Origin: Auanema rhodensis
Taxonomy: Eukaryota > Animalia > Nematoda
Direction: 5' to 3'
Length of the DNA stretch: 64,000 nt
Assembly: GCA_964057225.1 (NCBI GenBank)
Contig: OZ059898.1
Coordinates: forward strand, 1,364,001-1,428,000
Within the stretch, counting starts at the first letter, position 1, and each line of letters begins with the position of its first letter. The position numbers and the translations under genes were made by a program. The notes beneath the pieces were generated by a model. That model searched no databases. It had not been told where the DNA came from and saw nothing but the letters and a program-made list of their open reading frames with translations. Below are positions 3,601-64,000 of the stretch, piece after piece.

Positions 3601-4003
3601 GCATTTTTAAGCTAGCGCAAATCTGATAACACAGATCGACGCAGCTTAAAAATCCGCATCGAATGCACTATACTACATTGAAAAACGTTTAATACAAAAA
3701 TTAGTTAAGATCGTTTGAAAAATGATGCATTAGTGTATGTTGAGTTTCCATGTACACTCAACATTGCTTCCAAAAACATTTTGACAAAAATTTTTTCGAA
3801 AAATTTCAAAATAATTTAGCAAAAAGTAGATGTTTTTAGATTCCTTTTTTCAAGGCAAAGACGATGGACAATGTTAATCAACGAAAAAATTAATTCTTCA
3901 GGGTGAAAATCGAGGATATAAGTGTGAACTTATATCAGTTGATATCTCGGTGCATTTTTAAGCTAGCGCAAATTTGATAACACAGATCGACGCAGCTTAA
4001 AAA
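659..4003 (-). repeat. Inverted block 1 of the 351-bp satellite (3345 bp, includes deleted monomers)
   Basis: Reverse complement of the monomer. CAG(G/A)GTG anchors at 691, 970, 1321, 1557, 1908, 2259, 2495, 2846, 3197, 3548 and 3899 give unit lengths 279, 351, 236, 351, 351, 236, 351, 351, 351, 351. Confidence 0.95.
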
Positions 4004-5423
4004 ACCCTGAAGAATTAATTTTTTCGTTGAATAACATTGTCCATCGTCTTTGCCTTGAAAAAAGGAATCTAAAAACATCTACTTTTTGCTAAATTATTTT
4101 GAAATTTTTCGAAAAAATTTTTGTCAAAATGTTTTTGGAAGCAATGTTGAGTGTACATGGAAACTCAACATACACTAATGCATCATTTTTCAAACGATCA
4201 TAACTAATTTTTGTATTAAGCTTTTCTCAATGTAGTATAGTGCATTCGATGCGGATTTTTAAGCTGCGTCGATCTGTGTTATCAGATTTGCGCTAGCTTA
4301 AAAATGCACCGAGATATCAACTGATATAAGTTCACACTTATATCCTCGATTTTCACCCTGAAGAATTAATTTTTTCGTTGAATAACATTGTCCATCATCT
4401 TTGCTTTGAAAAAAGGAATCTAAAAACATCTACTTTTTGCTAAATTATTTTGAAATTTTTCGAAAAAATTTTTGTCAAAATGTTTTTGGAAGCAATGTTG
4501 AGTGTACATGGAAACTCAACATACACTAATGCATCATTTTTCAAACGATCATAACTAATTTTTGTATTAAGCGTTTTTCAATGTAGTATAGTGCATTCGA
4601 TGCGGATTTTTAAGCTGCGTCGATCTGTGTTATCAGATTTGCGCTAGCTTAAAAATGCACCGAGATATCAACTGATATAAGTTCACACTTATATCCTCGA
4701 TTTTCACCCTGAAGAATTAATTTTTTCGTTGAATAACATTGTCCATCGTCTTTGCCTTGAAAGAAGGAATCTAAAAACATCTACTTTTTGCTAAATTATT
4801 TTGAAATTTTTCGAAAAAATTTTTGTCAAAATGTTTTTGGAAGCAATGTTGAGTGTACATGGAAACTCAACATACACTAATGCATCATTTTTCAAACGAT
4901 CATAACTAATTTTTGTATTAAGCGTTTTTCAATGTAGTATAGTGCATTCGATGCGGATTTTTAAGCTGCGTCGATCTGTGTTATCAGATTTGCGCTAGCT
5001 TAAAAATGCACCGAGATATCAACTGATATAAGTTCACACTTATATCCTCGATTTTCACCCTGAAGAATTAATTTTTTCGTTGAATAACATTGTCCATCGT
5101 CTTTGCCTTGAAAGAAGGAATCTAAAAACATCTACTTTTTGCTAAATTATTTTGAAATTTTTCGAAAAAATTTTTGTCAAAATGTTTTTGGAAGCAATGT
5201 TGAGTGTACATGGAAACTCAACATACACTAATGCATCATTTTTCAAACGATCATAACTAATTTTTGTATTAAGCGTTTCTCAATGTAGTATAGTGCATTC
5301 GATGCGGATTTTTAAGCTGCGTCGATCTGTGTTATCAGATTTGCGCTAGCTTAAAAATGCACCGAGATATAAACTGATATAAGTTCACACTTATATCCTC
5401 GATTTTCACCCTGAAGAATTAAT
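4004..5423 (+). repeat. 351-bp satellite, forward orientation (~4 monomers between the inverted blocks)
   Basis: Starts with ACCCTGAAGAATTAAT at 4004 and ends with the same 16-mer at 5408-5423. Confidence 0.95.
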
Positions 5424-8417: not shown

Positions 8418-11400
8418 ACCCTGAAGAATTAATTTTTTCGTTGAATAACATTGTCCATCGTCTTTGCCTTGAAAAAAGGAATCTAAAAACATCTACTTTT
8501 TGCTAAATTATTTTGAAATTTTTCGAAAAAATTTTTGTCAAAATGTTTTTGGAAGCAATGTTGAGTGTACATGGAAACTCAACATACACTAATGCATCAT
8601 TTTTCAAACGATCATAACTAATTTTTGTATTAAGCTTTTCTCAATGTAGTATAGTGCATTCGATGCGGATTTTTAAGCTGCGTCGATCTGTGTTATCAGA
8701 TTTGCGCTAGCTTAAAAATGCACCGAGATATCAACTGATATAAGTTCACACTTATATCCTCGATTTTCACCCTGAAGAATTAATTTTTTCGTTGAATAAC
8801 ATTGTCCATCATCTTTGCTTTGAAAAAAGGAATCTAAAAACATCTACTTTTTGCTAAATTATTTTGAAATTTTTCGAAAAAATTTTTGTCAAAATGTTTT
8901 TGGAAGCAATGTTGAGTGTACATGGAAACTCAACATACACTAATGCATCATTTTTCAAACGATCATAACTAATTTTTGTATTAAGCGTTTTTCAATGTAG
9001 TATAGTGCATTCGATGCGGATTTTTAAGCTGCGTCGATCTGTGTTATCAGATTTGCGCTAGCTTAAAAATGCACCGAGATATCAACTGATATAAGTTCAC
9101 ACTTATATCCTCGATTTTCACCCTGAAGAATTAATTTTTTCGTTGAATAACATTGTCCATCGTCTTTGCCTTGAAAGAAGGAATCTAAAAACATCTACTT
9201 TTTGCTAAATTATTTTGAAATTTTTCGAAAAAATTTTTGTCAAAATGTTTTTGGAAGCAATGTTGAGTGTACATGGAAACTCAACATACACTAATGCATC
9301 ATTTTTCAAACGATCATAACTAATTTTTGTATTAAGCGTTTTTCAATGTAGTATAGTGCATTCGATGCGGATTTTTAAGCTGCGTCGATCTGTGTTATCA
9401 GATTTGCGCTAGCTTAAAAATGCACCGAGATATCAACTGATATAAGTTCACACTTATATCCTCGATTTTCACCCTGAAGAATTAATTTTTTCGTTGAATA
9501 ACATTGTCCATCGTCTTTGCCTTGAAAGAAGGAATCTAAAAACATCTACTTTTTGCTAAATTATTTTGAAATTTTTCGAAAAAATTTTTGTCAAAATGTT
9601 TTTGGAAGCAATGTTGAGTGTACATGGAAACTCAACATACACTAATGCATCATTTTTCAAACGATCATAACTAATTTTTGTATTAAGCGTTTCTCAATGT
9701 AGTATAGTGCATTCGATGCGGATTTTTAAGCTGCGTCGATCTGTGTTATCAGATTTGCGCTAGCTTAAAAATGCACCGAGATATCAACTGATATAAGTTC
9801 ACACTTATATCCTCGATTTTCACCCTGAAGAATTAATTTTTTCGTTGAATAACATTGTCCATCGTCTTTGCTTTGAAAAAAGGAATCTAAAAACATCTAC
9901 TTTTTGCTAAATTATTTTGAAATTTTTCGAAAAAATTTTTGTCAAAATGTTTTTGGAAGCAATGTTGAGTGTACATGGAAACTCAACATACACTAATGCA
10001 TCATTTTTCAAACGATCATAACTAATTTTTGTATTAAGCGTTTCTCAATGTAGTATAGTGCATTCGATGCGGATTTTTAAGCTGCGTCGATCTGTGTTAT
10101 CAGATTTGCGCTAGCTTAAAAATGCACCGAGATATCAACTGATATAAGTTCACACTTATATCCTCGATTTTCACCCTGAAGAATTAATTTTTCCGTTGAA
10201 TAACATTGTCCATCGTCTTTGCCTTGAAAAAAGGAATCTAAAAACATCTACTTTTTGCTAAATTATTTTGAAATTTTTCGAAAAAATTTTTGTCAAAATG
10301 TTTTTGGAAGCAATGTTGAGTGTACATGGAAACTCAACATACACTAATGCATCATTTTTCAAACAATCATAACTAATTTTTGTATTAAGCGTTTCTCAAT
10401 GTAGTATAGTGCATTCGATGCGGATTTTTAAGCTGCGTCGATCTGTGTTATCAGATTTGCGCTAGCTTAAAAATGCACCGAGATATCAACTGATATAAGT
10501 TCACACTTATATCCTCGATTTTCACCCTGAAGAATTAATTTTTTCGTTGAATAACATTGTCCATCGTCTTTGCCTTGAAAAAAGGAATCTAAAAACATCT
10601 ACTTTTTGCTAAATTATTTTGAAATTTTTCGAAAAAATTTTTGTCGAAATGTTTTTGGAAGCAATGTTGAGTGTACATGGAAACTCAACATACACTAATG
10701 CATCATTTTTCAAACGATCATAACTAATTTTTGTATTAAGCGTTTTTCAATGTAGTATAGTGCATTCGATGCGGATTTTTAAGCTGCGTCGATCTGTGTT
10801 ATCAGATTTGCGCTAGCTTAAAAATGCACCGAGATATCAACTGGTATAAGTTCACACTTATATCCTCGATTTTCACCCTGAAGAATTAATTTTTTCGTTG
10901 AATAACATTGTCCATCGTCTTTGCCTTGAAAAAAGGAATCTAAAAACATCTACTTTTTGCTAAATTATTTTGAAATTTTTCGAAAAAATTTTTGTCAAAA
11001 TGTTTTTGGAAGCAATGTTGAGTGTACATGGAAACTCAACATACACTAATGCATCATTTTTCAAACGATCATAACTAATTTTTGTATTAAGCTTTTCTCA
11101 ATGTAGTATAGTGCATTCGATGCGGATTTTTAAGCTGCGTCGATCTGTGTTATCAGATTTGCGCTAGCTTAAAAATGCACCGAGATATCAACTGATATAA
11201 GTTCACACTTATATCCTCGATTTTCACCCTGAAGAATTAATTTTTTCGTTGAATAACATTGTCCATCATCTTTGCTTTGAAAAAAGGAATCTAAAAACAT
11301 CTACTTTTTGCTAAATTATTTTGAAATTTTTCGAAAAAATTTTTGTCAAAATGTTTTTGGAAGCAATGTTGAGTGTACATGGAAACTCAACATACACTAA

Positions 11401-47400: not shown

Positions 47401-48927
47401 GTTGAATAACAGTGTCCATCGTCTTTGCCTTGAAAAAAGGAATCTAAAAACATCTACTTTTTGCTAAATTATTTTGAAATTTTTCGAAAAAATTTTTGTC
47501 AAAATGTTTTTGGAAGCAATGTTGAGTGTACATGGAAACTCAACATACACTAATGCATCATTTTTCAAACGATCATAACTAATTTTTGTATTAAGCGTTT
47601 CTCAATGTAGTATAGTGCATTCGATGCGGATTTTTAAGCTGCGTCGATCTGTGTTATCAGATTTGCGCTAGCTTAAAAATGCACCGAGATATTAACTGAT
47701 ATAAGTTCACACTTATATCCTCGATTTTCACCCTGAAGAATTAATTTTTTCGTTGAATAACAGTGTCCATCGTCTTTGCCTTGAAAAAAGGAATCTAAAA
47801 ACATCTACTTTTTGCTAAATTATTTTGAAATTTTTCGAAAAAATTTTTGTCAAAATGTTTTTGGAAGCAATGTTGAGTGTACATGGAAACTCAACATACA
47901 CTAATGCATCATTTTTCAAACGATCATAACTAATTTTTGTATTAAGCGTTTTCCAATGTAGTATAGTGCATTCGATGCGGATTTTTAAGCTGCGTCGATC
48001 TGTGTTATCAGATTTGCGCTAGCTTAAAAATGCACCGAGATATCAACTGGTATAAGTTCACACTTATATCCTCGATTTTCACCCTGAAGAATTAATTTTT
48101 TCGTTGAATAACATTGTCCATCGTCTTTGCCTTGAAAAAAGGAATCTAAAAACATCTACTTTTTGCTAAATTATCTTGAAATTTTTCGAAAAAATTTTTG
48201 TCAAAATGTTTTTGGAAGCAATGTTGAGTGTACATGGAAACTCAACATACACTAATGCATCATTTTTCAAACGATCATAACTAATTTTTGTATTAAGCGT
48301 TTCTCAATGTAGTATAGTGCATTCGATGCGGATTTTTAAGCTGCGTCGATCTGTGTTATCAGATTTGCGCTAGCTTAAAAATGCACCGAGATATTAACTG
48401 ATATAAGTTCACACTTATATCCTCGATTTTCACCCTGAAGAATTAATTTTTTCGTTGAATAACATTGTCCATCGTCTTTGCCTTGAAAAAAGGAATCTAA
48501 AAACATCTACTTTTTGCTAAATTATTTTGAAATGTTTCGAAAAAATTTTTGTCAAAATGTTTTTGGAAGCAATGTTGAGTGTACATGGAAACTCAACATA
48601 CACTAATGCATCATTTTTCAAACGATCATAACTAATTTTTGTGTTAAGCGTTTTTCAATGTAGTATAGTGCATTCGATGCGGATTTTTAAGCTGCGTCGA
48701 TCTGTGTTATCAGATTTGCGCTAGCTTAAAAATGCACCGAGATATCAACTGGTATAAGTTCACACTTATATCCTCGATTTTCACCCTGAAGAATTAATTT
48801 TTTCGTTGAATAACATTGTCCATCGTCTTTGCCTTGAAAAAAGGAATCTAAAAACATCTACTTTTTGCTAAATTATCTTGAAATTTTTCGAAAAAATTTT
48901 TGTCAAAATGTTTTTGGAAGCAATGTT
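8418..48927 (+). repeat. 351-bp tandem satellite, ~115 head-to-tail monomers
   Basis: GGAATC anchors at 9531 and 48843 are 39312 bp = 112 x 351 apart. Monomers differ by only a few recurring substitutions. Confidence 0.98.
48923..48927 (+). other. Left copy of 5-bp target-site duplication ATGTT
   Basis: The satellite reads GGAAGCA-ATGTT-GAGTG. ATGTT lies on both sides of the element, and satellite phase shifts by exactly 7543+5 bp (anchors 48843 and 56742). Confidence 0.9.
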
Positions 48928-49248
48928 TGTTTCGTATATTATACGAAATTTAATGAAAGTAACGGAGAAACTATTAAAAAAGTGAGAATTCATTAAATAT
49001 TAAAATCATCCTGAAAAGAAATTATTCATTAATCATTTATTCTCATTTGGTTTGAGAAAAACCGGTTGTATACGCGTCACGTCATAAGCGCGTGAAATTG
49101 ACGTAACGAGGACTATAAAGTTATCTTTCAGTTCACATAGTTGGCTCATAGCGCGTAGTCGCATATTTAATATTATATATATCGTGATTCATAAAATATT
49201 TCTTATAAATAAATCATTTTCATTATATTTCGTTTTAATTTCGAGATA
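48928..49248 (+). repeat. 5' LTR (321 bp, TGTTTCG...CGAGATA)
   Basis: Base-for-base direct repeat of 56150-56470 by eye. Contains an ACGT/CGCG cluster (49071-49108), TATAAA (49114-49119) and AATAAA (49208-49213). Confidence 0.96.
49071..49133 (+). promoter_or_regulatory. LTR core promoter: ACGT-motif cluster plus TATA box
   Basis: TACGCGTCACGTCATAAGCGCGTGAAATTGACGTAACG is a CpG-rich patch in an AT-rich LTR and is followed by TATAAAG. Function is inferred from position. Confidence 0.6.
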
Positions 49249-49255
49249 TAAAAAG

Positions 49256-49267
49256 TGGTGCATCGGC
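49256..49267 (+). promoter_or_regulatory. Primer-binding site, tRNA-Gly(GCC) type
   Basis: TGGTGCATCGGC starts 7 nt after the 5' LTR and is complementary to the ...GCCGATGCACCA 3' end of invertebrate tRNA-Gly(GCC) (recalled from memory). Confidence 0.8.
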
Positions 49268-49377
49268 AAATCTAGAATCACAAACATAAAAGAAATATCA
49301 ATTCCAAAAATAAGATCAATTCTTAAACAGAGAATAAACTTATAAAATTAATTGGAAAAAAAAAATTATAAGCTGAA

Positions 49378-51291
49378 ATGAGCAGTCAAGGAAACAAAAA
49401 TGACAATAGTGCCTATAAATCAGCTATACAAAGAAAAATAAACTGTACATTAGCAAGAAGAGAAAAAATAAAAATTATTTTCGATTCAGATTTGAACGAA
49501 ATGGAAGTTTATTTACCAGAAATAAAGGAATACTTAAATTATTTTGTTAGATTCATGGAAAGTGTGATTTCTCTCAGAATTGAAGAAGATTTTCCAATTA
49601 TAAAAGAAAAAGTTGAAAATTCAATCATAATTGAAAACTGGGAAAGCATAAAAAATGAAATATACTTTATTGCGAAAAATATTAATAGTGATATACAAAG
49701 CGCTTCACGAGAAGAAATAAAATTATGCATCAGAAATTTCAAATTAAATGAAAAAGACTTCCTAGAAGCAATAAATCAAAAAGATTTAATCGAAATCGAA
49801 GAGGAACCCTCAGATAATGAAGAGGAAACTCAATTTTCTTCAGAAGAAGATTTAGAATCGGAATACGAAAAGTTATCACAAAGATTCACTCCTACCAACT
49901 TCAAAATTAACCAATTTAAAAGCAAACATGCAAAATATGTGTACCAAACCCCAATCAAAAAAGGTACACCTAATTTAATAATATCCCCAAGAGCAAAACA
50001 AACAGTTCAATATAAAGAAAACGATTTACTATCAAAAATAAAACAATTGACAAACAATTTAAATGAATTAAAAACGAAATATAATGAAGAAATTGGAAAA
50101 ACACATAAAAAATGTGAAATACACAAAAGAACAGAAAAGTACGAAAGTAATGAAGAATATAATACAGAATCAGATGAAGAAAATATATCTTATGGAAAAA
50201 ACAAACACAAGATCATGAAAAATGAAGGATTCAAACCAAAAATGGAATTACAAAAATTTGATGGAGAAATCAAAAAATTTAAAGAATTTTACAACATGTT
50301 CAAAATGCTCATACATAATAATAAAAAAATAACAAAATTAGAAAAATTATACTATCTCAAAACATCACTTACCGGCTTCCCATCACAACTGTTGGAACAC
50401 ATCAGCCTAGAGGCGAACAATTATGCAAAAGCTCTGAAATTGTTAAAAGATACGTTTGATAGACCTTACGAAATTAAAAAAGATTTAAAAATGGAGCTTA
50501 GTAACGTAAGAAAATCATATAACAACCCAATACATGCAAGAGAAAATTTTTATAAAATTAAGTCAATAATATCAGCATTAGAAGAGTACGAAAACGTTGA
50601 TAATGATGAAATAATAGAAATAATAAAAAGCAAATTTGATATAGAGATCAACACAAAAATATCCGAAATAGAAATAACAGAAAAAAGGAGAATGAACATA
50701 GAAGACGTGCTAAAATGCATAGAAATCAAAATAGAAGCAGGAATTGCAGCAACAAAAAACAGCAAAAGTGAAAAATATGAGCATAGATCAACAATTAATT
50801 TTTTGACAAATTCAAATAAAGAAAGAAATCCGAAAACAATAAAAAATTATAATAGAATGAACGAAAATAATTATAGCCCTACAAAACAAATTGAAAAAAC
50901 ATGCATATACTGTAGAATGGATAATCATGATACGAAATACTGTAGAAAATTAAAACCAATTAGCGAAAAGCGAAATATTATTATGCAAAACAAAGTATGC
51001 TGGATTTGTTTTAGCAAAAAACATTCATCATTCGAATGTAAAGAAAAACCATGCGAAATATGCAATGGACGGCATCATCAAAGCATTTGCATAAAAAACC
51101 AATATGCTAATGAGCAAACTACACTCAAAAACAACAGAAACGCATATGCTAATGAAGGTACCCCAAACCAAAATGAAAGAAAATATTATGCTAATGAAGA
51201 GAGAGGCCAAAAACCTCAACTAACAGGTGGCAATCAAGAACCATTAGGGCAAAATTTTCGAATAATGAAAAATGTAATAGAAAAGGGATAA
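49378..51291 (+). CDS. gag: Gag protein, 637 aa (BEL/Pao capsid region of DUF1759 type plus three CCHC knuckles)
   Basis: LQKFDGEIKKFKEFYNMF...EKLYYLKTSLTG capsid-type motif. Knuckles are CIYCRMDNHDTKYC, CWICFSKKHSSFEC and CEICNGRHHQSIC. Confidence 0.93.
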   Translation: MSSQGNKNDNSAYKSAIQRKINCTLARREKIKIIFDSDLNEMEVYLPEIKEYLNYFVRFMESVISLRIEEDFPIIKEKVENSIIIENWESIKNEIYFIAKNINSDIQSASREEIKLCIRNFKLNEKDFLEAINQKDLIEIEEEPSDNEEETQFSSEEDLESEYEKLSQRFTPTNFKINQFKSKHAKYVYQTPIKKGTPNLIISPRAKQTVQYKENDLLSKIKQLTNNLNELKTKYNEEIGKTHKKCEIHKRTEKYESNEEYNTESDEENISYGKNKHKIMKNEGFKPKMELQKFDGEIKKFKEFYNMFKMLIHNNKKITKLEKLYYLKTSLTGFPSQLLEHISLEANNYAKALKLLKDTFDRPYEIKKDLKMELSNVRKSYNNPIHARENFYKIKSIISALEEYENVDNDEIIEIIKSKFDIEINTKISEIEITEKRRMNIEDVLKCIEIKIEAGIAATKNSKSEKYEHRSTINFLTNSNKERNPKTIKNYNRMNENNYSPTKQIEKTCIYCRMDNHDTKYCRKLKPISEKRNIIMQNKVCWICFSKKHSSFECKEKPCEICNGRHHQSICIKNQYANEQTTLKNNRNAYANEGTPNQNERKYYANEERGQKPQLTGGNQEPLGQNFRIMKNVIEKG

Positions 51292-54200
51292 TAAGAACTA
51301 ATCTTTTATCAGAAAATATAAATAACACAGAAAAAAATAGAAATAACACATTTTTCATATCATTTTTCAAAACTTATCATAAAAATCTAGTAATATTATT
51401 CGATACTTGCTCTCATCAATCATTTATAAAAGAAAAAACAGCGAAACTGTTGAATTTAAAAATTTTAAACGAAAAATCTTTAAGTATTTCAAGCATAAAT
51501 AACAATATAAAAAACATATCATCTAGAGAAGTTATGTGGGATATTCCCGAAGTCAAAAAAGCAGTAAAACTAATGAGTATTGATCAAATTACAAAATATG
51601 TTAATATGCCCATATTAAATGAAGAGGATATTAAAGAAATCAAAGCATATAAACTAAAAAGTAATACATTATTATTTGAAAAAGGTCTTGTAGAACCAGA
51701 TATTTTAATAGGAATGGACAATTTCTTCGATTTTGTTCCAAAAACTTTCAAATCTATTAATATACGTAATGATTTGATTATAATACCAACTATAATACAT
51801 CCTATTATTGCTCAAAGTGACTGTAATGATAGTAATTCAAAAGAATCCGTTCAAAACGAAGATATAAGCTGTTTTTTAAACGGAATTAGTTTAAATGATG
51901 ATAATAAAAAAGCAACTAAAGAAGAAATACGTAAATATGAAGATAAAATGGCTTGGAAACATTTTTACGATAATGTACAATATGTAAATGATCGAATTAA
52001 AGTTAAATTTCCAATAAGACCGGATGTTCAATCAATTAACAATAATTATGGCAAAAGTATCGGATGTTTGAATGGCATACTGAACACAATGAAAGATAAA
52101 ACCGATATTTTGATGAAATATAACGAAACAATGATGGAACAAATGAAAACTGGAATTCTAGAAATTGCTCCAGAGCAAAATCATCCTTTTTTCACTTATT
52201 ATATACCACATCATTATGTTTTAAAACTGTCGAGCCTGACTACAAAGCTCAGAATTGTTCTAAATGCATCAAGTAAAAAGAAAAATGAAAAATCTCTCAA
52301 TGACATACTGTATCAAGGTGAAGGCATCATACCAAGTCTTGCAGGCATGCTAATAAGACTCAGAATGAGTAGAAACTTCTTAATAGGGGACATAGAGAAA
52401 GCGTTCCACCAAATAGAATTAGACGAAAGTCATAGAGATTTAACAAGAATTTTATGGGTGAAAGACATTCACAAAGGAACGCAGAAAAGTAACATTCTAA
52501 ACTTACGATTTACAAGAATACCTTTTGGAGTGAACAGTTCACCATTCCTATTAGCAGCAAGCATAATTTATTTTTTAAAAACGGAAAAAAGTGAAATCTC
52601 AGAAAATATATTAAGAAACATTTATGTGGACAACATAATGCTGAAAATTGAAAATAAAGATCAAATTTTCAAATTTTATGAGGAAGTAAAAAATTTATTT
52701 TCAAAAATAGGAATGAACGTTAGAGAATTTTATACTAATGATGTAATTCAAAAAGACATGATCCCAATCAAAGACCAGATTAAAGAAACAAGCTTCAAAA
52801 TACTAGGAATGCATTACAACGGTGAAAAAGATGTTTTATTAATAAAAATACCCAAATGGGAAGAGAAGTCTATCACCAAAAGAGGAATTTTGAGCTATAT
52901 AAACTCAATATTCGACCCTCTCGGTATAACACAACCTCTAACATTAAAACTAAGGTTATTCTTGAAAGAAATTTGGGATTCCAAAATAGGATGGGACGAA
53001 CTAATACCAGAAAAACAACAATCAGTATGGAAAACCTTATATAAAAAGATCGAAAACGAAAAAATCGAAATTAAAAGAGCAATTATCGATGAAACAAGCG
53101 ATACATCTCAAAAATATGAATTTTTATTATTCACTGACGCGTCTAAAGATGTCATAGCGGCCGTCGCATATGTGATGAGTATAAATATTCATGGAAAAAT
53201 TGAAAAAATAGATTTTTTATGCTCTAAATCATCGACAATGGTTGAAGGAACCATACCAATGAAAGAACTAACTGCTGTTCTTTTCGGAATGAAAATGTTA
53301 AAAGAAAATATCAAAGAAATAAACGTAAAAATCAAAAATATTAAAATTTTCACTGATTCACAAGTTGTTCTATGTTGGTTACATAAGAATCCAACGAAAA
53401 AAATATATATACGGAACAGATTGAACAAAATAACAGAATTAATAACCGAAATTGAACAAGGAAACCGAAAAATTGAATTTTTTTATGTGAATACAAAGTT
53501 TAATCCTGCCGATTTACCTACGAGAGGTTTAGAAAAACCCGATGAAACATATATGCAATGGATCGAAGGTCCTCAATGGTATAAAGCAGAAAAAGAACGA
53601 AATTTGCACATAAAAACATTGAAAGAAGTTATAGAAAAGTATTGTGATGAACCACAACTAAAAATAGTGACTTTGTTGTTAAAATCTGAAATGAATCCAG
53701 CTGAGAATCAAGATTTAGATTTCTTGGCACAAACTTTTTCATCGTATTCAAAGTTCATTAACATAATTCGCCAAGTTCTAATTTTCATCACTAAAATGCA
53801 GAAAAATATCGGAAAAACAAGTCAAAATCTGCTTGAGAATTTTAATGAAAAAGATACGTTGACAAAAAACAAAATGATTCAACAACTTCTAATAAAATGT
53901 CATCAAAACCAAAACAGCAATTTGCTTAAAAAAGAAAAATACAAGAAATTGGATATAATTACAGATGATTCTGGAATATTAAGAGTGCGAGGCCGATTAA
54001 GCAACTCAGAAAATAGTAACAAACAGTATCCAATTCTTCTTTTTGGAAAAAAAACATTCACTAAACTCATTCTTACTTACATCCATGAGACATCGCTTCA
54101 TAGTTCGCGAGAAACCATGATGGCAATAGTAAGAAGAGAATTTTTCATCATAAAACTTAAAACATGCATAAATACAGTAATTTCAAAATGTTTAAAATGT

Positions 54201-55262
54201 AAAAAATTAAATAATAGGCCATATAAATACCCAAATTATCCTCAATTACCAAAAGAAAGAGTCCTAATATATAAACCTTTTGAAAATATAGGTATTGATT
54301 ACGCCGGTCCGTTATTAGTAAAAACAAATAGTAATTATGACAAGAAGGTTTGGATTATGTTAATTACTTGCCTTTGTACACGAGCAGTATATTTGGATTT
54401 AGCCAATGATTGCTCCAGTAAAGAATTAACACTAAATCTGAGAAAATTTTTTGCTCGAAAACGAGTACCAACAAAAATAATATCAGATAACGGCAGTCAG
54501 TTTATAAAAACTGATAAAATTCTCGAAACTTTCATTGAAAAAAAGCATGTAAACTGGCAAAAAATAACTCCTTATTCACCATGGAAAGGAGGATTTTATG
54601 AAAGATTGATTGGAGTAACAAAAAAGTACTTAATAAAAACACTTGGAACAAGAACAGTTTATTTCAATGAATTAAGTACAATTTTAACAGAAATTGAAAA
54701 TATAATAAATTCGAGACCTATATCGTACATACATGACGATTTTGACAAAATAATAACTCCTAAAAGTCTAGAGTACTACCATCCAGAAAACCTCATTTGC
54801 GAATTCTCGGATAATGCAAAGAAAACAAATTTATCTCAAATTAACGAAATAAAAGACTGGATGAGTATTTGCAATAGAACTATTTCGGAATTTTGGAGAG
54901 AATGGTCTTTAACTTACCTTGAAGAACTAAGAGCATTATCTAACAAGAGTGCTATCAACAAAAACTGTAATAAAACAAATCCCAAAGTTGGTGAAATTGT
55001 TTTATGCATTGAAAATAACGTAAAAAGACACAAATGGCCACTTGCAATTATTGAAGAATTGATATATTCGCAAGATGGAGAGATCAGAACCGTCAAAATT
55101 AGAAATTCTGAAGGGAATCGATTTCTCAGATCTATTAATCATCTCATCCCTCTGGAAATATCAGAAGATACACCAAATAACGAAGAAAATCATAGAATAA
55201 ACAGTGAATCATTGCAAAATCATGAAAAAAGTAATGAACCAAAAAAATATAAAAGAGAATAA
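51198..55262 (+). CDS. pol: Pol polyprotein (aspartic protease, reverse transcriptase, RNase H, integrase), -1 frame relative to gag
   Basis: The ORF track starts at TTG 51450, but the frame is open back to 51198 and includes the protease motif LVILFDTCSHQSFI (Asp codon 51402). RT: DIEKAFHQI, RIPFGVNSSPFLL, YVDN. RNase H: FTDAS, FTDSQ, NPAD. Integrase: HHCC (IHETSLH...CLKC) plus DDE motifs, and a DUF5641-type C-terminus. Confidence 0.95.
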   Translation, partial: RERPKTSTNRWQSRTIRAKFSNNEKCNRKGIIRTNLLSENINNTEKNRNNTFFISFFKTYHKNLVILFDTCSHQSFIKEKTAKLLNLKILNEKSLSISSINNNIKNISSREVMWDIPEVKKAVKLMSIDQITKYVNMPILNEEDIKEIKAYKLKSNTLLFEKGLVEPDILIGMDNFFDFVPKTFKSINIRNDLIIIPTIIHPIIAQSDCNDSNSKESVQNEDISCFLNGISLNDDNKKATKEEIRKYEDKMAWKHFYDNVQYVNDRIKVKFPIRPDVQSINNNYGKSIGCLNGILNTMKDKTDILMKYNETMMEQMKTGILEIAPEQNHPFFTYYIPHHYVLKLSSLTTKLRIVLNASSKKKNEKSLNDILYQGEGIIPSLAGMLIRLRMSRNFLIGDIEKAFHQIELDESHRDLTRILWVKDIHKGTQKSNILNLRFTRIPFGVNSSPFLLAASIIYFLKTEKSEISENILRNIYVDNIMLKIENKDQIFKFYEEVKNLFSKIGMNVREFYTNDVIQKDMIPIKDQIKETSFKILGMHYNGEKDVLLIKIPKWEEKSITKRGILSYINSIFDPLGITQPLTLKLRLFLKEIWDSKIGWDELIPEKQQSVWKTLYKKIENEKIEIKRAIIDETSDTSQKYEFLLFTDASKDVIAAVAYVMSINIHGKIEKIDFLCSKSSTMVEGTIPMKELTAVLFGMKMLKENIKEINVKIKNIKIFTDSQVVLCWLHKNPTKKIYIRNRLNKITELITEIEQGNRKIEFFYVNTKFNPADLPTRGLEKPDETYMQWIEGPQWYKAEKERNLHIKTLKEVIEKYCDEPQLKIVTLLLKSEMNPAENQDLDFLAQTFSSYSKFINIIRQVLIFITKMQKNIGKTSQNLLENFNEKDTLTKNKMIQQLLIKCHQNQNSNLLKKEKYKKLDIITDDSGILRVRGRLSNSENSNKQYPILLFGKKTFTKLILTYIHETSLHSSRETMMAIVRREFFIIKLKTCINTVISKCLKCKKLNNRPYKYPNYPQLPKERVLIYKPFENIGIDYAGPLLVKTNSNYDKKVWIMLITCLCTRAVYLDLANDCSSKELTLNLRKFFARKRVPTKIISDNGSQFIKTDKILETFIEKKHVNWQKITPYSPWKGGFYERLIGVTKKYLIKTLGTRTVYFNELSTILTEIENIINSRPISYIHDDFDKIITPKSLEYYHPENLICEFSDNAKKTNLSQINEIKDWMSICNRTISEFWREWSLTYLEELRALSNKSAINKNCNKTNPKVGEIVLCIENNVKRHKWPLAIIEELIYSQDGEIRTVKIRNSEGNRFLRSINHLIPLEISEDTPNNEENHRINSESLQNHEKSNEPKKYKRE
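51252..51258 (+). promoter_or_regulatory. Putative -1 ribosomal frameshift slippery heptamer A_AAT_TTT
   Basis: Fits X_XXY_YYZ in the gag frame (caa aat ttt cga) and lies inside the 51198-51291 overlap where pol is open in the -1 frame. Confidence 0.65.
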
Positions 55263-55382
55263 TCCAGAATTATGGAAAAATAGACTTCGGAATATCGAAA
55301 AAATTGACTACACTATGTTCTTTTAGCTATAACAACATTGAATTAAATTAAATTTTGTAGATGCATAGTGTAGTTTCTAGAA

Positions 55383-55383
<1 letters not shown>

Positions 55384-55410
<27 letters not shown>
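55384..55410. repeat. A10 run plus (AT)9 microsatellite in the spacer between pol and the accessory gene
   Basis: AAAAAAAAAATATATATATATATATAT read directly. Confidence 0.85.
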
Positions 55411-55414
<4 letters not shown>

Positions 55415-55461
55415 TTTAAATAAAAAGTAATTCAAATTATGTGAAGAGAGTTAATCGGTCG

Positions 55462-55548
55462 TTTTTTTTTGCGGCGGATGATTCGTGACACGTCATAACG
55501 TTACGTGAACGTCACGTAAAGTCACGCAACCAGAAATAGTATATAAAG
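55462..55548 (+). promoter_or_regulatory. Internal LTR-like promoter (relic PPT/LTR start, five ACGT cores, TATA box)
   Basis: T9-GCGGCGGA|TGATTCGT compares with GGGCTGGAA|TGTTTCGT at the 3' LTR. Blocks CACGTCATAA, CGTGAA and ACGTAA occur in the same order as in the LTR. TATATAAA at 55540-55547 lies upstream of ATG 55579. Confidence 0.65.
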
Positions 55549-55578
55549 AAAAGAATCTAACAGAAAAATTCATTTCTC

Positions 55579-56081
55579 ATGAAGGAACAGAACGAAATCA
55601 TGAATGATTATGAAGAACTACTTCTGGAGGAAGGAATTGAAGAAAACCAAGCAACCACCGACAATCTCATAGAAAGAATATCCTTTCTGGAGAAACACGT
55701 GGTTACTATGTGTGAAGCACTGAAGAAATTAAATGATATTTACTCTGAAAAACGAGAGATAAGTAGTAAACAACCAGAAAAGGTATATAATTTAATAATA
55801 AACAACTTATAAATAACAAAAAATTATTTAAGAAAGATGGTACATCAACTATAACATATAAACCGAAGTCATACTGCAAACTCTGTAAAAAAGAACACAA
55901 CACCGAAAAATGTTCCCAACATCTATCTAAACTTTCTAAGTTTACCAAAGCAGTCTCTATGAAGTTATGCTTACTCTGTCTTAACAGACATAAAGGAGAT
56001 TGCACAAAAGCAAAAATTTGTAAATTTTGTAATTTGAAGCAGTATAATTTTATTATCTGCCCATGTACCAAACGAAAATAA
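55579..56081 (+). CDS. Predicted spliced accessory gene, join(55579..55782,55833..56081), 150 aa: acidic/helical N-terminus plus Gag-like triple zinc knuckle
   Basis: Exon 1 is the first 68 codons of the 77-aa ORF. A phase-0 50-bp GT..AG intron joins it in frame to KDGTSTITYKPKSYCKLCKKEHNTEKCSQHLSKLSKFTKAVSMKLCLLCLNRHKGDCTKAKICKFCNLKQYNFIICPCTKRK*. AATAAA at 56097-56102. Confidence 0.75.
55783..55832 (+). other. Predicted 50-bp spliceosomal intron
   Basis: AAG|GTATAT...TTATTTAAG|AAA. It is almost pure A/T, contains the exon-1-frame stop, and its removal fuses two open frames in phase 0. Confidence 0.65.
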
Positions 56082-56140
56082 ACATTTTTTAAATGAAATA
56101 AAATGAATTCTTTCGTGAAACATATTAAACAACCCGATTC

Positions 56141-56149
56141 GGGCTGGAA
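56141..56149 (+). promoter_or_regulatory. Short, interrupted polypurine-tract equivalent GGGCTGGAA
   Basis: G-rich tract immediately 5' of the 3' LTR. Confidence 0.6.
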
Positions 56150-56470
56150 TGTTTCGTATATTATACGAAATTTAATGAAAGTAACGGAGAAACTATTAAA
56201 AAAGTGAGAATTCATTAAATATTAAAATCATCCTGAAAAGAAATTATTCATTAATCATTTATTCTCATTTGGTTTGAGAAAAACCGGTTGTATACGCGTC
56301 ACGTCATAAGCGCGTGAAATTGACGTAACGAGGACTATAAAGTTATCTTTCAGTTCACATAGTTGGCTCATAGCGCGTAGTCGCATATTTAATATTATAT
56401 ATATCGTGATTCATAAAATATTTCTTATAAATAAATCATTTTCATTATATTTCGTTTTAATTTCGAGATA
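56150..56470 (+). repeat. 3' LTR (321 bp)
   Basis: Identical to 48928-49248 and followed directly by the TSD ATGTT and resumed satellite. Confidence 0.96.
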
Positions 56471-56475
56471 ATGTT
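56471..56475 (+). other. Right copy of 5-bp target-site duplication ATGTT
   Basis: ...TTTCGAGATA|ATGTT|GAGTGTACATGG. Confidence 0.9.
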
Positions 56476-59400
56476 GAGTGTACATGGAAACTCAACATAC
56501 ACTAATGCATCATTTTTCAAACGATCATAACTAATTTTTGTATTAAGCGTTTCTCAATGTAGTATAGTGCATTCGATGCGGATTTTTAAGCTGCGTCGAT
56601 CTGTGTTATCAGATTTGCGCTAGCTTAAAAATGCACCGAGATATTAACTGATATAAGTTCACACTTATATCCTCGATTTTCACCCTGAAGAATTAATTTT
56701 TTCGTTGAACAACATTGTCCATCGTCTTTGCCTTGAAAAAAGGAATCTAAAAACATCTACTTTTTGCTAAATTATTTTGAAATTTTTCGAAAAAATTTTT
56801 GTCAAAATGTTTTTGGAAGCAATGTTGAGTGTACATGGAAACTCAACATACACTAATGCATCATTTTTCAAACGATCATAACTAATTTTTGTATTAAGCG
56901 TTTTTCAATGTAGTATAGTGCATTCGATGCGGATTTTTAAGCTGCGTCGATCTGTGTTATCAGATTTGCGCTAGCTTAAAAATGCACCGAGATATCAACT
57001 GGTATAAGTTCACAATTATATCCTCGATTTTCACCCTGAAGAATTAATTTTTTCGTTGAATAACATTGTCCATCGTCTTTGCCTTGAAAAAAGAAATCTA
57101 AAAACATCTACTTTTTGCTAAATTATTTTGAAATTTTTCGAAAAAATTTTTGTCAAAATGTTTTTGGAAGCAATGTTGAGTGTACATGGAAACTCAACAT
57201 ACACTAATGCATCATTTTTCAAACGATCATAACTAATTTTTGTATTAAGCGTTTTTCAATGTAGTATAGTGCATTCGATGCGGATTTTTAAGCTGCGTCG
57301 ATCTGTGTTATCAGATTTGCGCTAGCTTAAAAATGCACCGAGATATCAACTGGTATAAGTTCACACTTATATCCTCGATTTTCACCCTGAAGAATTAATT
57401 TTTTCGTTGAATAACATTGTCCATCGTCTTTGCCTTGAAAAAAGGAATCTAAAAACATCTACTTTTTGCTAAATTATCTTGAAATTTTTCGAAAAAATTT
57501 TTGTCAAAATGTTTTTGGAAGCAATGTTGAGTGTACATGGAAACTCAACATACACTAATGCATCATTTTTCAAACGATCATAACTAATTTTTGTATTAAG
57601 TGTTTCTCAATGTAGTATAGTGCATTCGATGCGGATTTTTAAGCTGCGTCGATATGTGTTATCAGATTTGCGCTAGCTTAAAAATGCACCGAGATATCAA
57701 CTGATATAAGTTCACACTTATATCCTCGATTTTCACCCTGAAGAATTAATTTTTTCGTTGAATAACATTGTCCATCGTCTTTGCCTTGAAAAAAGGAATC
57801 TAAAAACATCTACTTTTTGCTAAATTATCTTGAAATTTTTCGAAAAAATTTTTGTCAAAATGTTTTTGGAAGCAATGTTGAGTGTACATGGAAACTCAAC
57901 ATACACTAATGCATCATTTTTCAAACGATCATAATTAATTTTTGTATTAAGCGTTTCTCAATGTAGTATAGTGCATTCGATGCGGATTTTTAAGCTGCGT
58001 CGATCTGTGTTATCAGATTTGCGCTAGCTTAAAAATGCACCGAGATATCAACTGATATAAGTTCACACTTATATCCTCGATTTTCACCCTGAAGAATTAA
58101 TTTTTTCGTTGAATAACATTGTCCATCGTCTTTGCCTTGAAAAAAGGAATCTAAAAACATCTACTTTTTGCTAAATTATTTTGAAATTTTTCGAAAAAAT
58201 TTTTGTCAAAATGTTTTTGGAAGCAATGTTGAGTGTACATGGAAACTCAACATACACTAATGCATCATTTTTCAAACGATCATAACTAATTTTTGTATTA
58301 AGCGTTTCTCAATGTAGTATAGTGCATTCGATGCGGATTTTTAAGCTGCGTCGATCTGTGTTATCAGATTTGCGCTAGCTTAAAAATGCACCGAGATATT
58401 AACTGATATAAGTTCACACTTATATCCTCGATTTTCACCCTGAAGAATTAATTTTTTCGTTGAATAACATTGTCCATCGTCTTTGCCTTGAAAAAAGGAA
58501 TCTAAAAACATCTACTTTTTGCTAAATTATTTTGAAATTTTTCGAAAAAATTTTTGTCAAAATGTTTTTGGAAGCAATGTTGAGTGTACATGGAAACTCA
58601 ACATACACTAATGCATCATTTTTCAAACGATCATAACTAATTTTTGTATTAAGCGTTTTTCAATGTAGTATAGTGCATTCGATGCGGATTTTTAAGCTGC
58701 GTCGATCTGTGTTATCAGATTTGCGCTAGCTTAAAAATGCACCGAGATATCAACTGGTATAAGTTCACAATTATATCCTCGATTTTCACCCTGAAGAATT
58801 AATTTTTTCGTTGAATAACATTGTCCATCGTCTTTGCCTTGAAAAAAGAAATCTAAAAACATCTACTTTTTGCTAAATTATTTTGAAATTTTTCGAAAAA
58901 ATTTTTGTCAAAATGTTTTTGGAAGCAATGTTGAGTGTACATGGAAACTCAACATACACTAATGCATCATTTTTCAAACGATCATAACTAATTTTTGTAT
59001 TAAGCGTTTTTCAATGTAGTATAGTGCATTCGATGCGGATTTTTAAGCTGCGTCGATCTGTGTTATCAGATTTGCGCTAGCTTAAAAATGCACCGAGATA
59101 TCAACTGGTATAAGTTCACACTTATATCCTCGATTTTCACCCTGAAGAATTAATTTTTTCGTTGAATAACATTGTCCATCGTCTTTGCCTTGAAAAAAGG
59201 AATCTAAAAACATCTACTTTTTGCTAAATTATCTTGAAATTTTTCGAAAAAATTTTTGTCAAAATGTTTTTGGAAGCAATGTTGAGTGTACATGGAAACT
59301 CAACATACACTAATGCATCATTTTTCAAACGATCATAACTAATTTTTGTATTAAGTGTTTCTCAATGTAGTATAGTGCATTCGATGCGGATTTTTAAGCT

Positions 59401-62400
59401 GCGTCGATATGTGTTATCAGATTTGCGCTAGCTTAAAAATGCACCGAGATATCAACTGATATAAGTTCACACTTATATCCTCGATTTTCACCCTGAAGAA
59501 TTAATTTTTTCGTTGAATAACATTGTCCATCGTCTTTGCCTTGAAAAAAGGAATCTAAAAACATCTACTTTTTGCTAAATTATCTTGAAATTTTTCGAAA
59601 AAATTTTTGTCAAAATGTTTTTGGAAGCAATGTTGAGTGTACATGGAAACTCAACATACACTAATGCATCATTTTTCAAACGATCATAATTAATTTTTGT
59701 ATTAAGCGTTTCTCAATGTAGTATAGTGCATTCGATGCGGATTTTTAAGCTGCGTCGATCTGTGTTATCAGATTTGCGCTAGCTTAAAAATGCACCGAGA
59801 TATCAACTGATATAAGTTCACACTTATATCCTCGATTTTCACCCTGAAGAATTAATTTTTTCGTTGAATAACATTGTCCATCGTCTTTGCCTTGAAAAAA
59901 GGAATCTAAAAACATCTACTTTTTGCTAAATTATTTTGAAATTTTTCGAAAAAATTTTTGTCAAAATGTTTTTGGAAGCAATGTTGAGTGTACATGGAAA
60001 CTCAACATACACTAATGCATCATTTTTCAAACGATCATAACTAATTTTTGTATTAAGCGTTTCTCAATGTAGTATAGTGCATTCGATGCGGATTTTTAAG
60101 CTGCGTCGATCTGTGTTATCAGATTTGCGCTAGCTTAAAAATGCACCGAGATATCAACTGATATAAGTTCACACTTATATCCTCGATTTTCACCCTGAAG
60201 AATTAATTTTTTCGTTGAATAACATTGTCCATCGTCTTTGCCTTGAAAAAAGGAATCTAAAAACATCTACTTTTTGCTAAATTATTTCGAAATTTTTCGA
60301 AAAAATTTTTGTCAAAATGTTTTTGGAAGCAATGTTGAGTGTACATGGAAACTCAACATACACTAATGCATCATTTTTCAAACGATCATAACTAATTTTT
60401 GTATCAAGCGTTTCTCAATGTAGTATAGTGCATTCGATGCGGATTTTTATGCTGCGTCGATCTGTGTTATCAGATTTGCGCTAGCTTAAAAATGCACCGA
60501 GATATCAACTGATATAAGTTCACACTTATATCCTCGATTTTCACCCTGAAGAATTAATTTTTTCGTTGAATAACATTGTCCATCGTCTTTGCCTTGAAAA
60601 AAGGAATCTAAAAACATCTACTTTTTGCTAAATTATCTTGAAATTTTTCGAAAAAATTTTTGTCAAAATGTTTTTGGAAGCAATGTTGAGTGTACATGGA
60701 AACTCAACATACACTAATGCATCATTTTTCAAACGATCATAACTAATTTTTGTATTAAGTGTTTCTCAATGTAGTATAGTGCATTCGATGCGGATTTTTA
60801 AGCTGCGTCGATCTGTGTTATCAGATTTGCGCTAGCTTAAAAATGCACTGAGATATCAACTGATATAAGTTCACACTTATATCCTCGATTTTCACCCTGA
60901 AGAATTAATTTTTTCGTTGAATAACATTGTCCATCGTCTTCGCCTTGAAAAAAGGAATCTAAAAACATCTACTTTTTGCTAAATTATCTCGAAATTTTTC
61001 GAAAAAATTTTTGTCAAAATGTTTTTGGAAGCAATGTTGAGTGTACATGGAAACTCAACATACACTAATGCATCATTTTTCAAACGATCATAACTAATTT
61101 TTGTATTAAGCGTTTCTCAATGTAGTATAGTGCATTCGATGCGGATTTTTAAGCTGCGTCGATCTGTGTTATCAGATTTGCGCTAGCTTAAAAATGCACC
61201 GAGATATCAACTGATATAAGTTCACACTTATATCCTCGATTTTCACCCTGAAGAATTAATTTTTTCGTTAAATAACATTGTCCATCGTCTTTGCCTTGAA
61301 AAAAGGAATCTAAAAACATCTACTTTTTGCTAAATTATTTTGAAATTTTTCGAAAAAATTTTTGTCAAAATGTTTTTGGAAGCAATGTTGAGTGTACATG
61401 GAAACTCAACATACACTAATGCATCATTTTTCAAACGATCATAACTAATTTTTGTATTAAGCGTTTCTCAATGTAGTATAGTGCATTCGATGCGGATTTT
61501 TAAGCTGCGTCGATCTGTGTTATCAGATTTGCGCTAGCTTAAAAATGCACCGAGATATTAACTGATATAAGTTCACACTTATATCCTCGATTTTCACCCT
61601 GAAGAATTAATTTTTTCGTTGAATAACATTGTCCATCGTCTTTGCCTTGAAAAAAGGAATCTAAAAACATCTACTTTTTGCTAAATTATTTCGAAATTTT
61701 TCGAAAAAATTTTTGTCAAAATGTTTTTGGAAGCAATGTTGAGTGTACATGGAAACTCAACATACACTAATGCATCATTTTTCAAACGATCATAACTAAT
61801 TTTTGTATTAAGCGTTTCTCAATGTAGTATAGTGCATTCGATGCGGATTTTTATGCTGCGTCGATCTGTGTTATCAGATTTGCGCTAGCTTAAAAATGCA
61901 CCGAGATATCAACTGATATAAGTTCACACTTATATCCTCGATTTTCACCCTGAAGAATTAATTTTTTCGTTGAATAACATTGTCCATCGTCTTTGCCTTG
62001 AAAAAAGAAATCTAAAAACATCTACTTTTTGCTAAATTATTTTGAAATTTTTCGAAAAAATTTTTGTCAATATGTTTTTGGAAGCAATGTTGAGTGTACA
62101 TGGAAACTCAACATACACTAATGCATCATTTTTCAAACGATCATAACTAATTTTTGTATTAAGTGTTTCTCAATGTAGTATAGTGCATTCGATGCGGATT
62201 TTTAAGCTGCGTCGATCTGTGTTATCAGATTTGCGCTAGCTTAAAAATGCACTGAGATATCAACTGATATAAGTTCACACTTATATCCTCGATTTTCACC
62301 CTGAAGAATTAATTTTTTCGTTGAATAACATTGTCCATCGTCTTTGCCTTGAAAAAAGAAATCTAAAAACATCTACTTTTCGATAAATTATTTTGAAATT

Positions 62401-64000
62401 TTTCGAAAAAATTTTTGTCAATATGTTTTTGGAAGCAATGTTGAGTGTACATGGAAACTCAACATACACTAATGCATCATTTTTCAAACGATCATAACTA
62501 ATTTTTGTATTAAGCGTTTCTCAATGTAGTATAGTGCATTCGATGCGGATTTTTAAGCTGCGTCGATCTGTGTTATCAGATTTGCGCTAGCTTAAAAATG
62601 CACCGAGATATCAACTGATATAAGTTCACACTTATATCCTCGATTTTCACCCTGAAGAATTAATTTTTTCGTTGAATAACATTGTCCATCGTCTTTGCCT
62701 TGAAAAAAGGAATCTAAAAACATCTACTTTTTGCTAAATTATCTTGAAATTTTTCGAAAAAATTTTTGTCAAAATGTTTTTGGAAGCAATGTTGAGTGTA
62801 CATGGAAACTCAACATACACTAATGCATCATTTTTCAAACGATCATAACTAATTTTTGTATTAAGTGTTTCTCAATGTAGTATAGTGCATTCGATGCGGA
62901 TTTTTAAGCTGCGTCGATCTGTGTTATCAGATTTGCGCTAGCTTAAAAATGCACTGAGATATCAACTGATATAAGTTCACACTTATATCCTCGATTTTCA
63001 CCCTGAAGAATTAATTTTTTCGTTGAATAACATTGTCCATCGTCTTCGCCTTGAAAAAAGGAATCTAAAAACATCTACTTTTTGCTAAATTATCTCGAAA
63101 TTTTTCGAAAAAATTTTTGTCAAAATGTTTTTGGAAGCAATGTTGAGTGTACATGGAAACTCAACATACACTAATGCATCATTTTTCAAACGATCATAAC
63201 TAATTTTTGTATTAAGCGTTTTTCAATGTAGTATAGTGCATTCGATGCGGATTTTTAAGCTGCGTCGATCTGTGTTATCAGATTTGCGCTAGCTTAAAAA
63301 TGCACCGAGATATCAACTGATATAAGTTCACACTTATATCCTCGATTTTCACCCTGAAGAATTAATTTTTTCGTTGAATAACATTGTCCATCGTCTTTGC
63401 CTTGAAAAAAGGAATCTAAAAACATCTACTTTTTGCTAAATTATTTTGAAATTTTTCGAAAAAATTTTTGTCAAAATATTTTTGGAAGCAATGTTGAGTG
63501 TACATGGAAACTCAACATACACTAATGCATCATTTTTCAAACGATCATAACTAATTTTTGTATTAAGCGTTTCTCAATGTAGTATAGTGCATTCGATGCG
63601 GATTTTTAAGCTGCGTCGATCTGTGTTATCAGATTTGCGCTAGCTTAAAAATGCACCGAGATATTAACTGATATAAGTTCACACTTATATCCTCGATTTT
63701 CACCCTGAAGAATTAATTTTTTCGTTGAATAACAGTGTCCATCGTCTTTGCCTTGAAAAAAGGAATCTAAAAACATCTACTTTTTGCTAAATTATTTTGA
63801 AATTTTTCGAAAAAATTTTTGTCAAAATGTTTTTGGAAGCAATGTTGAGTGTACATGGAAACTCAACATACACTAATGCATCATTTTTCAAACGATCATA
63901 ACTAATTTTTGTATTAAGCGTTTTTCAATGTAGTATAGTGCATTCGATGCGGATTTTTAAGCTGCGTCGATCTGTGTTATCAGATTTGCGCTAGCTTAAA
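56471..64000 (+). repeat. 351-bp tandem satellite, ~21.5 monomers (runs off the window end)
   Basis: GGAATC anchors at 56742 and 63411 are 19 x 351 apart. Confidence 0.98.

Follow-up and report, generated by a model that had tools for sequence, protein, structure and literature searches.

Retroelements of the BEL/Pao type are classified as Belpaoviridae, for which the ICTV profile gives the genes gag, pol and env, with env as the sole third gene, and describes replication as poorly understood (PMC8742986). Extra ORFs downstream of pol are known in LTR elements (PMC5408684, PMC6431247). Here, a stretch of 64,000 nucleotides from Auanema rhodensis (the window) was analyzed, in which a BEL/Pao element differs from Belpaoviridae in its third gene: instead of env, ORF3 would encode a 150-aa nucleocapsid paralog and contains a predicted intron. 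A second nucleocapsid gene in BEL/Pao elements receives no mention in the accessible portions of PMC554778, PMC3118150, PMC2774666, PMC9094657, and PMC13524379. Nor was one found in our search of the accessible literature. Extra ORFs are reportedly discussed for Cer elements by Bowen and McDonald (1999) and Ganko (2001), where an earlier description may exist.

In C. elegans, the element Cer1 produces CERV from a spliced mRNA that uses an env-position ORF, and CERV is required for the export of genomic RNA (PMC10309623). As far as the accessible description extends, CERV has in common with ORF3 a nematode LTR element as its host, an env-position ORF, a spliced mRNA (predicted in the present case), a leucine-zipper-like helix, a Cys-rich site, and a predicted multimer; unlike ORF3, the env-position ORF of Cer1 supplies the C-terminal half only, the leucine zipper is common with Gag, and the domains, compared here by description, are not described there as a CCHC nucleocapsid (PMC10309623). 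CERV is a 517-aa Ty3/gypsy protein of another architecture, and the analogy is functional only. Similar to the putative arrangement at ORF3, foamy viruses, with Tas/Bet, possess a TATA-type internal promoter in the 3' region, a small regulatory gene, and cis elements in both promoter and LTR (PMC12789967). In contrast to ORF3, they belong to another virus family, and Tas is a DNA-binding protein. Tas is not known to derive from a nucleocapsid. With LINE-1 ORF1p the resemblance is one of architecture only, namely an RhxxhE coiled coil with nucleic-acid-binding domains; ORF1p is the main packaging protein of a non-LTR element, whereas ORF3 is additional to a full Gag. Ty1 p22 resembles the proposed role of ORF3 in being a regulator derived from Gag, but is part of Gag itself. 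Bdelloid LTR elements possess non-env extra ORFs after pol, but these encode env-like, GDSL, DEDDy, coiled-coil or TM proteins, and the term "CCHC" has no occurrence in the accessible text (PMC5408684). SDG-1 and ZK262.8 are the products of extra host-like genes within nematode LTR retrotransposons, but the accessible text describes no knuckles for them and reports them as restricted to C. elegans (PMC11793870).

The host element and its setting

The window is filled by a 351-bp satellite array, the sole interruption of which, and the only non-satellite island, is a 7,543-bp LTR retrotransposon located at 48928-56470 (all features described here are on the + strand). The satellite blocks at 1-48927 and 56471-64000 are homogeneous, with approximately 99% identity between the listed 351-bp units, and two inverted blocks are present at 659-4006 and 5424-8420. 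Both LTRs (48928-49248 and 56150-56470) are 321 bp in length, run from TG to TA and are 100% identical, and the target-site duplication ATGTT is located at 48923-48927 and repeated at 56471-56475, with the boundaries of LTR end and duplication uncertain by one base. The identity of the LTRs together with the duplication therefore indicates a recent insertion into the satellite array. A satellite-targeting tether was among the functions suggested in the initial annotation; regarding association with the satellite, the window contains a single insertion only. It can be observed that the LTR terminus is TA instead of the usual CA, and that the primer-binding site begins 7 nt past the LTR end (49245-49256). 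This site, at 49256-49267, starts with TGG and likely matches tRNA-Gly, which we take to be the primer. No host tRNA was found within the window. For Belpaoviridae, the primer is tRNA-Arg or tRNA-Gly (ICTV profile, PMC8742986). The 3' LTR contains AATAAA at 56430 and is abutted by a purine-rich tract at 56141-56149, the likely PPT; the RNA fold at the 3' end of the element is unremarkable (z -1.4).

The gag gene (49378-51291) is intact and encodes 637 aa with DUF1759 and a triple Cys-His box at aa 509-572. Its three knuckles start at 509, 541, and 559 with a first linker of 18 aa, which confirms the layout previously assigned to Gag. A slippery heptamer, A AAG GGA, at 51282-51288 adjoins the gag stop and likely directs a -1 frameshift into pol. 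The heptamer lies immediately 5' of two in-frame TAA codons (51282-51360), and no stable hairpin was found downstream of it (-0.9 kcal/mol). The pol frame (51198-55262) is stop-free and encodes a Pol of 1,354 aa with protease, RT with YVDN, RNase H, integrase, and DUF5641. The Pfam domains over cut-off were DUF1759 in gag and DUF1758, RVT_1, Peptidase_A17, Integrase_H2C2, and DUF5641 in pol, while rve was under cut-off. Between the pol stop and the putative ORF3 promoter, an A-tract with an (AT)n palindrome is present at 55383-55418 and may keep pol apart from the putative internal promoter.

The 321-bp LTRs and the 7,543-bp element fall within the sizes given for Belpaoviridae (LTRs 0.2-1.2 kb, genome 4.2-10 kb), and Pao-type gag and pol, the order PR-RT-RH-IN and the triple Cys-His box in Gag are those of the family. 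The element is a BEL/Pao retrotransposon, likely of the nematode type, with intact gag and pol. It has in common with the nematode type of Belpaoviridae/BEL-Pao (Semotivirus) the organization LTR-PBS-gag-pol-PPT-LTR and an RT with YVDN, in addition to the features already named. Pol is closest to the Logan protein P0001 (57%) and to a protein from Auanema sp. JU1783 (59%); the others among the best 120 of 384 relatives are at 34% or less. Accordingly, a rhabditid nematode is the likely host.

The intact state of the element within a satellite array would be compatible with a germ-granule or anti-silencing factor, that is, an RNA-binding oligomer which shields the RNA of the element from small-RNA silencing or tunes it, by analogy with SDG-1 in Cer9. 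The genes sdg-1 and ZK262.8 are carried inside C. elegans retrotransposons, SDG-1 is located in perinuclear granules (PMC11793870), and Cer9 is counted among the Pao-like elements (PMC554778). Against this, SDG-1 is reportedly without homologs beyond C. elegans, and the word "zinc" has no occurrence in the accessible text (PMC11793870). Such a role for ORF3 is considered improbable.

ORF3 and its predicted intron

Exon 1 of ORF3 is located at 55579-55782 (204 nt, 68 codons). It encodes a coiled coil, has an acidic N-terminus (net -8 over aa 1-25) and a second Met at codon 8, and carries an RhxxhE motif at aa 33-38 (55675-55692) within the coiled coil. The predicted intron at 55783-55832 is 50 nt in length, of the GT-AG type (AAG/GTATAT...TTTAAG/A), in phase 0 and 10% G+C. 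Exon 2, at 55833-56081, consists of 82 codons and a stop, is basic (+16), and contains the Pao-type triple knuckle at 55875-56060, composed of C15-C27 (CX2CX3HX4C), 18 aa, C46-C57 (CX2CX3HX3C), 5 aa, and C63-C76 (CX2CX4YX4C). In the third knuckle Tyr replaces His, and an additional C-x-C is present. A check of the sequence reproduced the coordinates of the exons and intron, the phase and the knuckle spacings that the initial annotation had proposed. No Pfam domain was named in either exon. An env or fusogen was rejected as the identity of ORF3, which is 150 aa in all, charged throughout, and without a Pfam glycoprotein match.

When the pol-LTR interval was shuffled with dinucleotides preserved, the triple knuckle arose in none of 72,859 shuffles, and two stop-free + strand frames of ORF3 size arose in 16 of 72,859. 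The codon bias of exon 1 is gag/pol-like in its own frame (+14.6 vs -32.1 and -26.5), that of exon 2 is neutral (-1.8 vs -6.9 and -40.7), and for the intron bases the score is non-discriminating (+2.8 over 9 codons, -0.7 over 14). Exon 2 is without Met ahead of knuckle 1, and the exon overlap at 55791-55812 contains no in-frame slippery heptamer, for which reason programmed frameshifting was rejected and splicing is the simplest route to translation of exon 2. Joining of exon 1 to gag through an acceptor further upstream appears less likely, as the nearest AG (55563) is without the T-rich context of the splice consensus.

In all, seven GT-AG pairs restore the frame, including that at 55783-55832, which was preferred over the six others because of its AAG/GT and TTTAAG/ context, assessed by eye, and its G+C content. 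Both of its splice sites are off the nematode consensus (+5 A, -3 A). The lowest-G+C windows across the ORF3 span fall on the intron (5 G+C in 50 bp), and 50-nt windows with 5 G+C or fewer were absent from gag (0/1,864), pol (0/3,921), exon 1 (0/154), and exon 2 (0/199). In a search of sequencing runs, no RNA run containing the element was listed. Three runs bearing the same species label, with 0.00 of the words of the stretch, were compared at 80% likeness: a 39-base piece of pol was present in two of the three, and nothing on ORF3, an outcome that counts neither for nor against splicing. Judged from the sequence features, ORF3 is likely to be spliced at the predicted intron. Since the two LTRs on either side of the predicted intron are identical and bordered by a target duplication of 5 bp, it must have survived reverse transcription, as had been proposed earlier. 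The AATAAA at 56097-56102, previously assigned to the gene as its own, is indeed present but at background frequency (20 copies in gag-pol, 3.4 per kb), and was not counted as evidence.

Homologs and the origin of the knuckles

A phmmer search with exon 2 as query against 1.84 billion representative proteins (E <= 0.001) returned seven matches, namely four Pao Gags that carry DUF1759 and three small proteins that lack it. The protein P0124, a single uninterrupted ORF of 106 aa with an acidic start, shows 41% identity with exon 2 across 75 aa (pairwise E 6e-17; library E 1.1e-6). It keeps every zinc ligand of exon 2 together with the unusual third knuckle, C-x2-C...Y...C-x-C, in which the added C-x-C could supply the fourth Cys as a ligand. 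A 37-residue predicted helix lies ahead of the knuckles. P0124 is located on three Logan contigs, the longest of which is 7,340 bp; the contigs of the Pol relative P0001 and of its cluster mate P0121 measure 7,340 and 7,328 bp, respectively. As two independent top matches thus have contigs of the same size, P0124 is very likely the third gene of a sister element.

The N-terminus of P0124 and exon 1 did not align significantly by plain alignment, nor was a BLASTP match obtained, and a score as good was obtained with 557 of 5,000 shuffles and with 54 of 2,956 control windows. The RhxxhE motif is at aligned positions in both, and arose in 207 and 282 of 10,000 shuffles in a post hoc test for which the motif was picked after inspection of the sequences. 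It is absent from the 637-aa Gag and the 1,354-aa Pol of the element. This motif has been linked to trimeric, and sometimes dimeric or tetrameric, coiled coils (PMC5381506). The two exons of ORF3 match the two halves of the contiguous P0124, which therefore provides the best support for the splice. The linker of P0124 is shorter and its ORF is without interruption, so that the intron may be unnecessary or confined to one lineage, a weakness for the feedback in the model described below.

The same layout is found in the 168-aa C. remanei protein GCK72_000732 (P0126), with K for R in the RhxxhE motif. CRE_27839 (P0130) terminates in a sequence almost identical to the N-terminal half of GCK72_000732, which stops just before knuckle 1 and is fused to an unrelated secreted-type domain. 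Judged by these sequences, several, partly broken copies are suggested in C. remanei. When profile A2 was searched against proteins of 37-294 aa, three of 716 candidates matched, being the two inputs and P0130; exon 2 matched none of the five candidates among proteins of 145-2,000 aa. Neither the 77-aa frame of the window nor Gag has an entry in the protein collection searched. In the ESM Atlas, a nematode cluster of 75 members, hypothetical proteins of 142 aa, was obtained at 0.89 and is a lead only, all leads being below 0.9. A fold search of PDB and BFVD with the P0124 model (pLDDT 75, pTM 0.45) gave no match at E <= 0.001 and returned only generic coiled coils (Z about 3), and the best E in the PDB sequence search was 0.21. 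The hydrophobic spacing of P0124 residues 2-11 is compatible with the pattern of a class 1a nuclear export signal, and that of exon 1 only if Tyr is accepted.

The homolog P0124 upholds the earlier proposal that the env position is occupied by a conserved accessory gene whose product carries a Gag-type triple knuckle, and ORF3 is probably, with good confidence, a real gene of this kind. A relic would be the alternative: no functional gene would exist, a second, internally deleted Pao element having been captured by recombination, and the two frames would be split by a frameshift instead of an intron. An LTR-like motif upstream of ORF3, knuckles foreign to the element and the weak homology of exon 1 in plain alignment are what such a capture would leave. 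Yet the zinc ligands, the unusual third knuckle, and RhxxhE are all kept in P0124, the likely host of which has a Pol just 57% identical, and at that distance a neutral relic would not be expected to survive; furthermore, the 50-bp segment is lower in G+C than all 5,785 of 5,785 gag and pol windows. A relic is thus regarded as very improbable.

In Pao Gag, the triple Cys-His box has been described as the motif that binds RNA (PMC554778), and dozens of Pao Gag-Pol proteins are matched by the A3 profile in their knuckle region. By sequence, the ORF3 knuckles are a Pao nucleocapsid domain. The initial annotation had regarded them as an old duplication of the element's own Gag, and the comparisons speak against this. 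Among triple-knuckle domains scored against exon 2, own Gag reaches 64 and rank 63 of 97, whereas P0124 reaches 158, and between the knuckles of own Gag and exon 2 the identity is 26% across 70 aa (E 1.1). A tree built from 30 of 98 domains over 70 columns shows exon 2 and P0124 as a pair (support 97/94), and their union with own Gag in one clade is rejected (p-AU 0.016), although the alignment is short and the set biased, as rows were chosen for nematode origin or a high score to either query and the closest neighbours had been retrieved by searching with exon 2. For these sequences, capture from a different Pao lineage is a better fit than duplication of own Gag; a duplication of very ancient date is the less likely alternative.

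The foreign grouping of the knuckles also bears on self-restriction, according to which an oligomer of capsid-less nucleocapsid rivals Gag, either of its own family or of the Pao lineage that donated the knuckles, for genomic RNA, and thereby limits copy number or excludes rival elements. DUF1759, the capsid-region domain, is absent from both ORF3 frames, P0124, and P0126, and the ORF3 protein is in effect a Gag without capsid domain whose knuckles group with other Pao Gags and not with that of the element. Ty1 p22 acts through its capsid domain, and this is missing in ORF3; in addition, at so low an identity with the knuckles of own Gag, a common RNA specificity is uncertain. Control of copy number by a trans-dominant Gag fragment is the subject of work on Ty1 cited in PMC7175516; for ORF3, self-restriction is judged an unlikely role.

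Putative internal promoter, proposed role, and distribution

Upstream of ORF3, a putative internal-promoter element at 55489-55519 contains five ACGT cores at 55490-55517 and resembles an ACGT-rich motif of the LTR, located at 49078-49106 and followed by TATAAA at 49114, with its 3' LTR copy at 56300-56328. A putative TATA box and initiator occupy 55540-55575, with TATATAAA at 55540 and, approximately 30 nt apart, TCATTT at 55570, which is initiator-like by the initiator consensus. The TATA box that had been attributed to the gene is therefore present, and its use as a promoter is presumed. A TATA box lies downstream of each copy of the motif. As the predicted 5' leader would be only 7 nt, translation may actually begin at Met 8 (143 aa), which aligns close to the N-terminus of P0124.

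The pattern CACGTCATAA-n-CGTGAA-n3-SACGTAA, drawn from its own three sites, occurs three times in the 64 kb, at both LTRs and at 55489, with 0 expected in 100 shuffles. The motif score was reached in none of 2,000 local dinucleotide shuffles; over the whole spacer, where 68 of 1,000 shuffles and also 9 of 57 control windows had scores as high, the likeness is not significant. For CpG, the ratio of observed to expected amounts to 2.8 (LTR) and 2.3 (spacer), compared with 0.6-1.0 for the coding parts. These sequence features suggest that the promoters are co-regulated, or that ORF3 derives from an LTR-gag piece that was captured.

A Tas-like transactivator would make use of such an arrangement. 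Produced from the internal promoter, it would bind the ACGT-rich element, either directly or via host bZIP/bHLH factors, and activate the LTR through its acidic N-terminus, in the manner of foamy-virus Tas, which is expressed from an internal promoter and stimulates both promoters (PMC12789967). The common motif ahead of a TATA box at both LTRs and at 55489, its absence from the local shuffles, the raised CpG of LTR and spacer and the acidic, hydrophobic tail with which exon 1 begins (net -8) would all be in line with this. On the other hand, the motif test was post hoc and gave no significance over the whole spacer, and the common motif is equally explained by one host factor serving both promoters or by a captured LTR-gag piece. 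Furthermore, Gag-type knuckles bind single-stranded nucleic acid, and duplex DNA is not their usual target. Transactivation of this type is accordingly held to be unlikely.

The preferred reading, to which we assign a probability of roughly one in three (0.36), is by analogy that of a Rev/CERV-like oligomeric factor, in which the ORF3 protein would bind full-length genomic RNA and favour its unspliced export. A short spliced mRNA from the putative internal promoter would yield the ORF3 protein first; subsequently, this protein would favour the intron-retaining full-length RNA, the source of new copies, which would explain the survival of the intron through reverse transcription. Hints of oligomerisation are the long predicted helix in P0124 and the RhxxhE motif in exon 1. 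The anatomy and phase of ORF3, the homology of its knuckles, a conserved homolog in one contiguous frame and the lack of a capsid domain are established; we infer promoter use, splicing, a three-stranded coiled coil, and RNA binding, while a role of its protein in export or protection is a guess. A wider generalization is more doubtful, namely that a clade of nematode BEL/Pao elements consists of "complex" retroelements which captured a foreign Gag nucleocapsid, dropped the capsid, and combined the knuckles with a trimeric coiled coil, an acidic tail, and an LTR-like internal promoter as a Rev- or Tas-like switch for their own genomic RNA, with the retained 50-bp intron as a sensor; the C. remanei protein and the 75-member nematode cluster would be included.

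If ORF3 is a small conserved regulator derived from a second nucleocapsid, BEL/Pao, a large animal family, would have retrovirus-like accessory genes, and one retroelement would have domesticated the Gag domain of another. It would also provide a 150-aa handle on the export of intron-containing genomic RNA in nematode germ lines, a question that in the literature covered, as far as the accessible texts extend, is addressed by CERV alone, from a different superfamily.

Of the homologues for which a search had been proposed, the protein P0124 was found, but none in the more distant elements examined. The Pol profile detected nine distant BEL/Pao loci among 587 metagenomic stretches (26-38% identity), none of which, several being fragments, contained a second knuckle ORF, and the gene is therefore not general to BEL/Pao. 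Among the long Pol and Gag-Pol relatives in which the integrase end was found, no knuckle follows the integrase. Exon 2 was found in none of 31 stretches of viral contigs, and the Pol profile in none of 158 from viral contigs and none of 69 from prokaryote genomes. P0005, which its source assigns to a gammaproteobacterial MAG (contig of 7,275 bp), is a BEL/Pao Pol-Env polyprotein with PF07245 and likely a mis-binned animal element. Another instance of knuckle multiplication is provided by P0122 and P0123 (Armadillidium vulgare assembly and Logan), Pao Gag-like proteins which carry DUF1759 and three tandem triple-knuckle units, with no pol in the same ORF.
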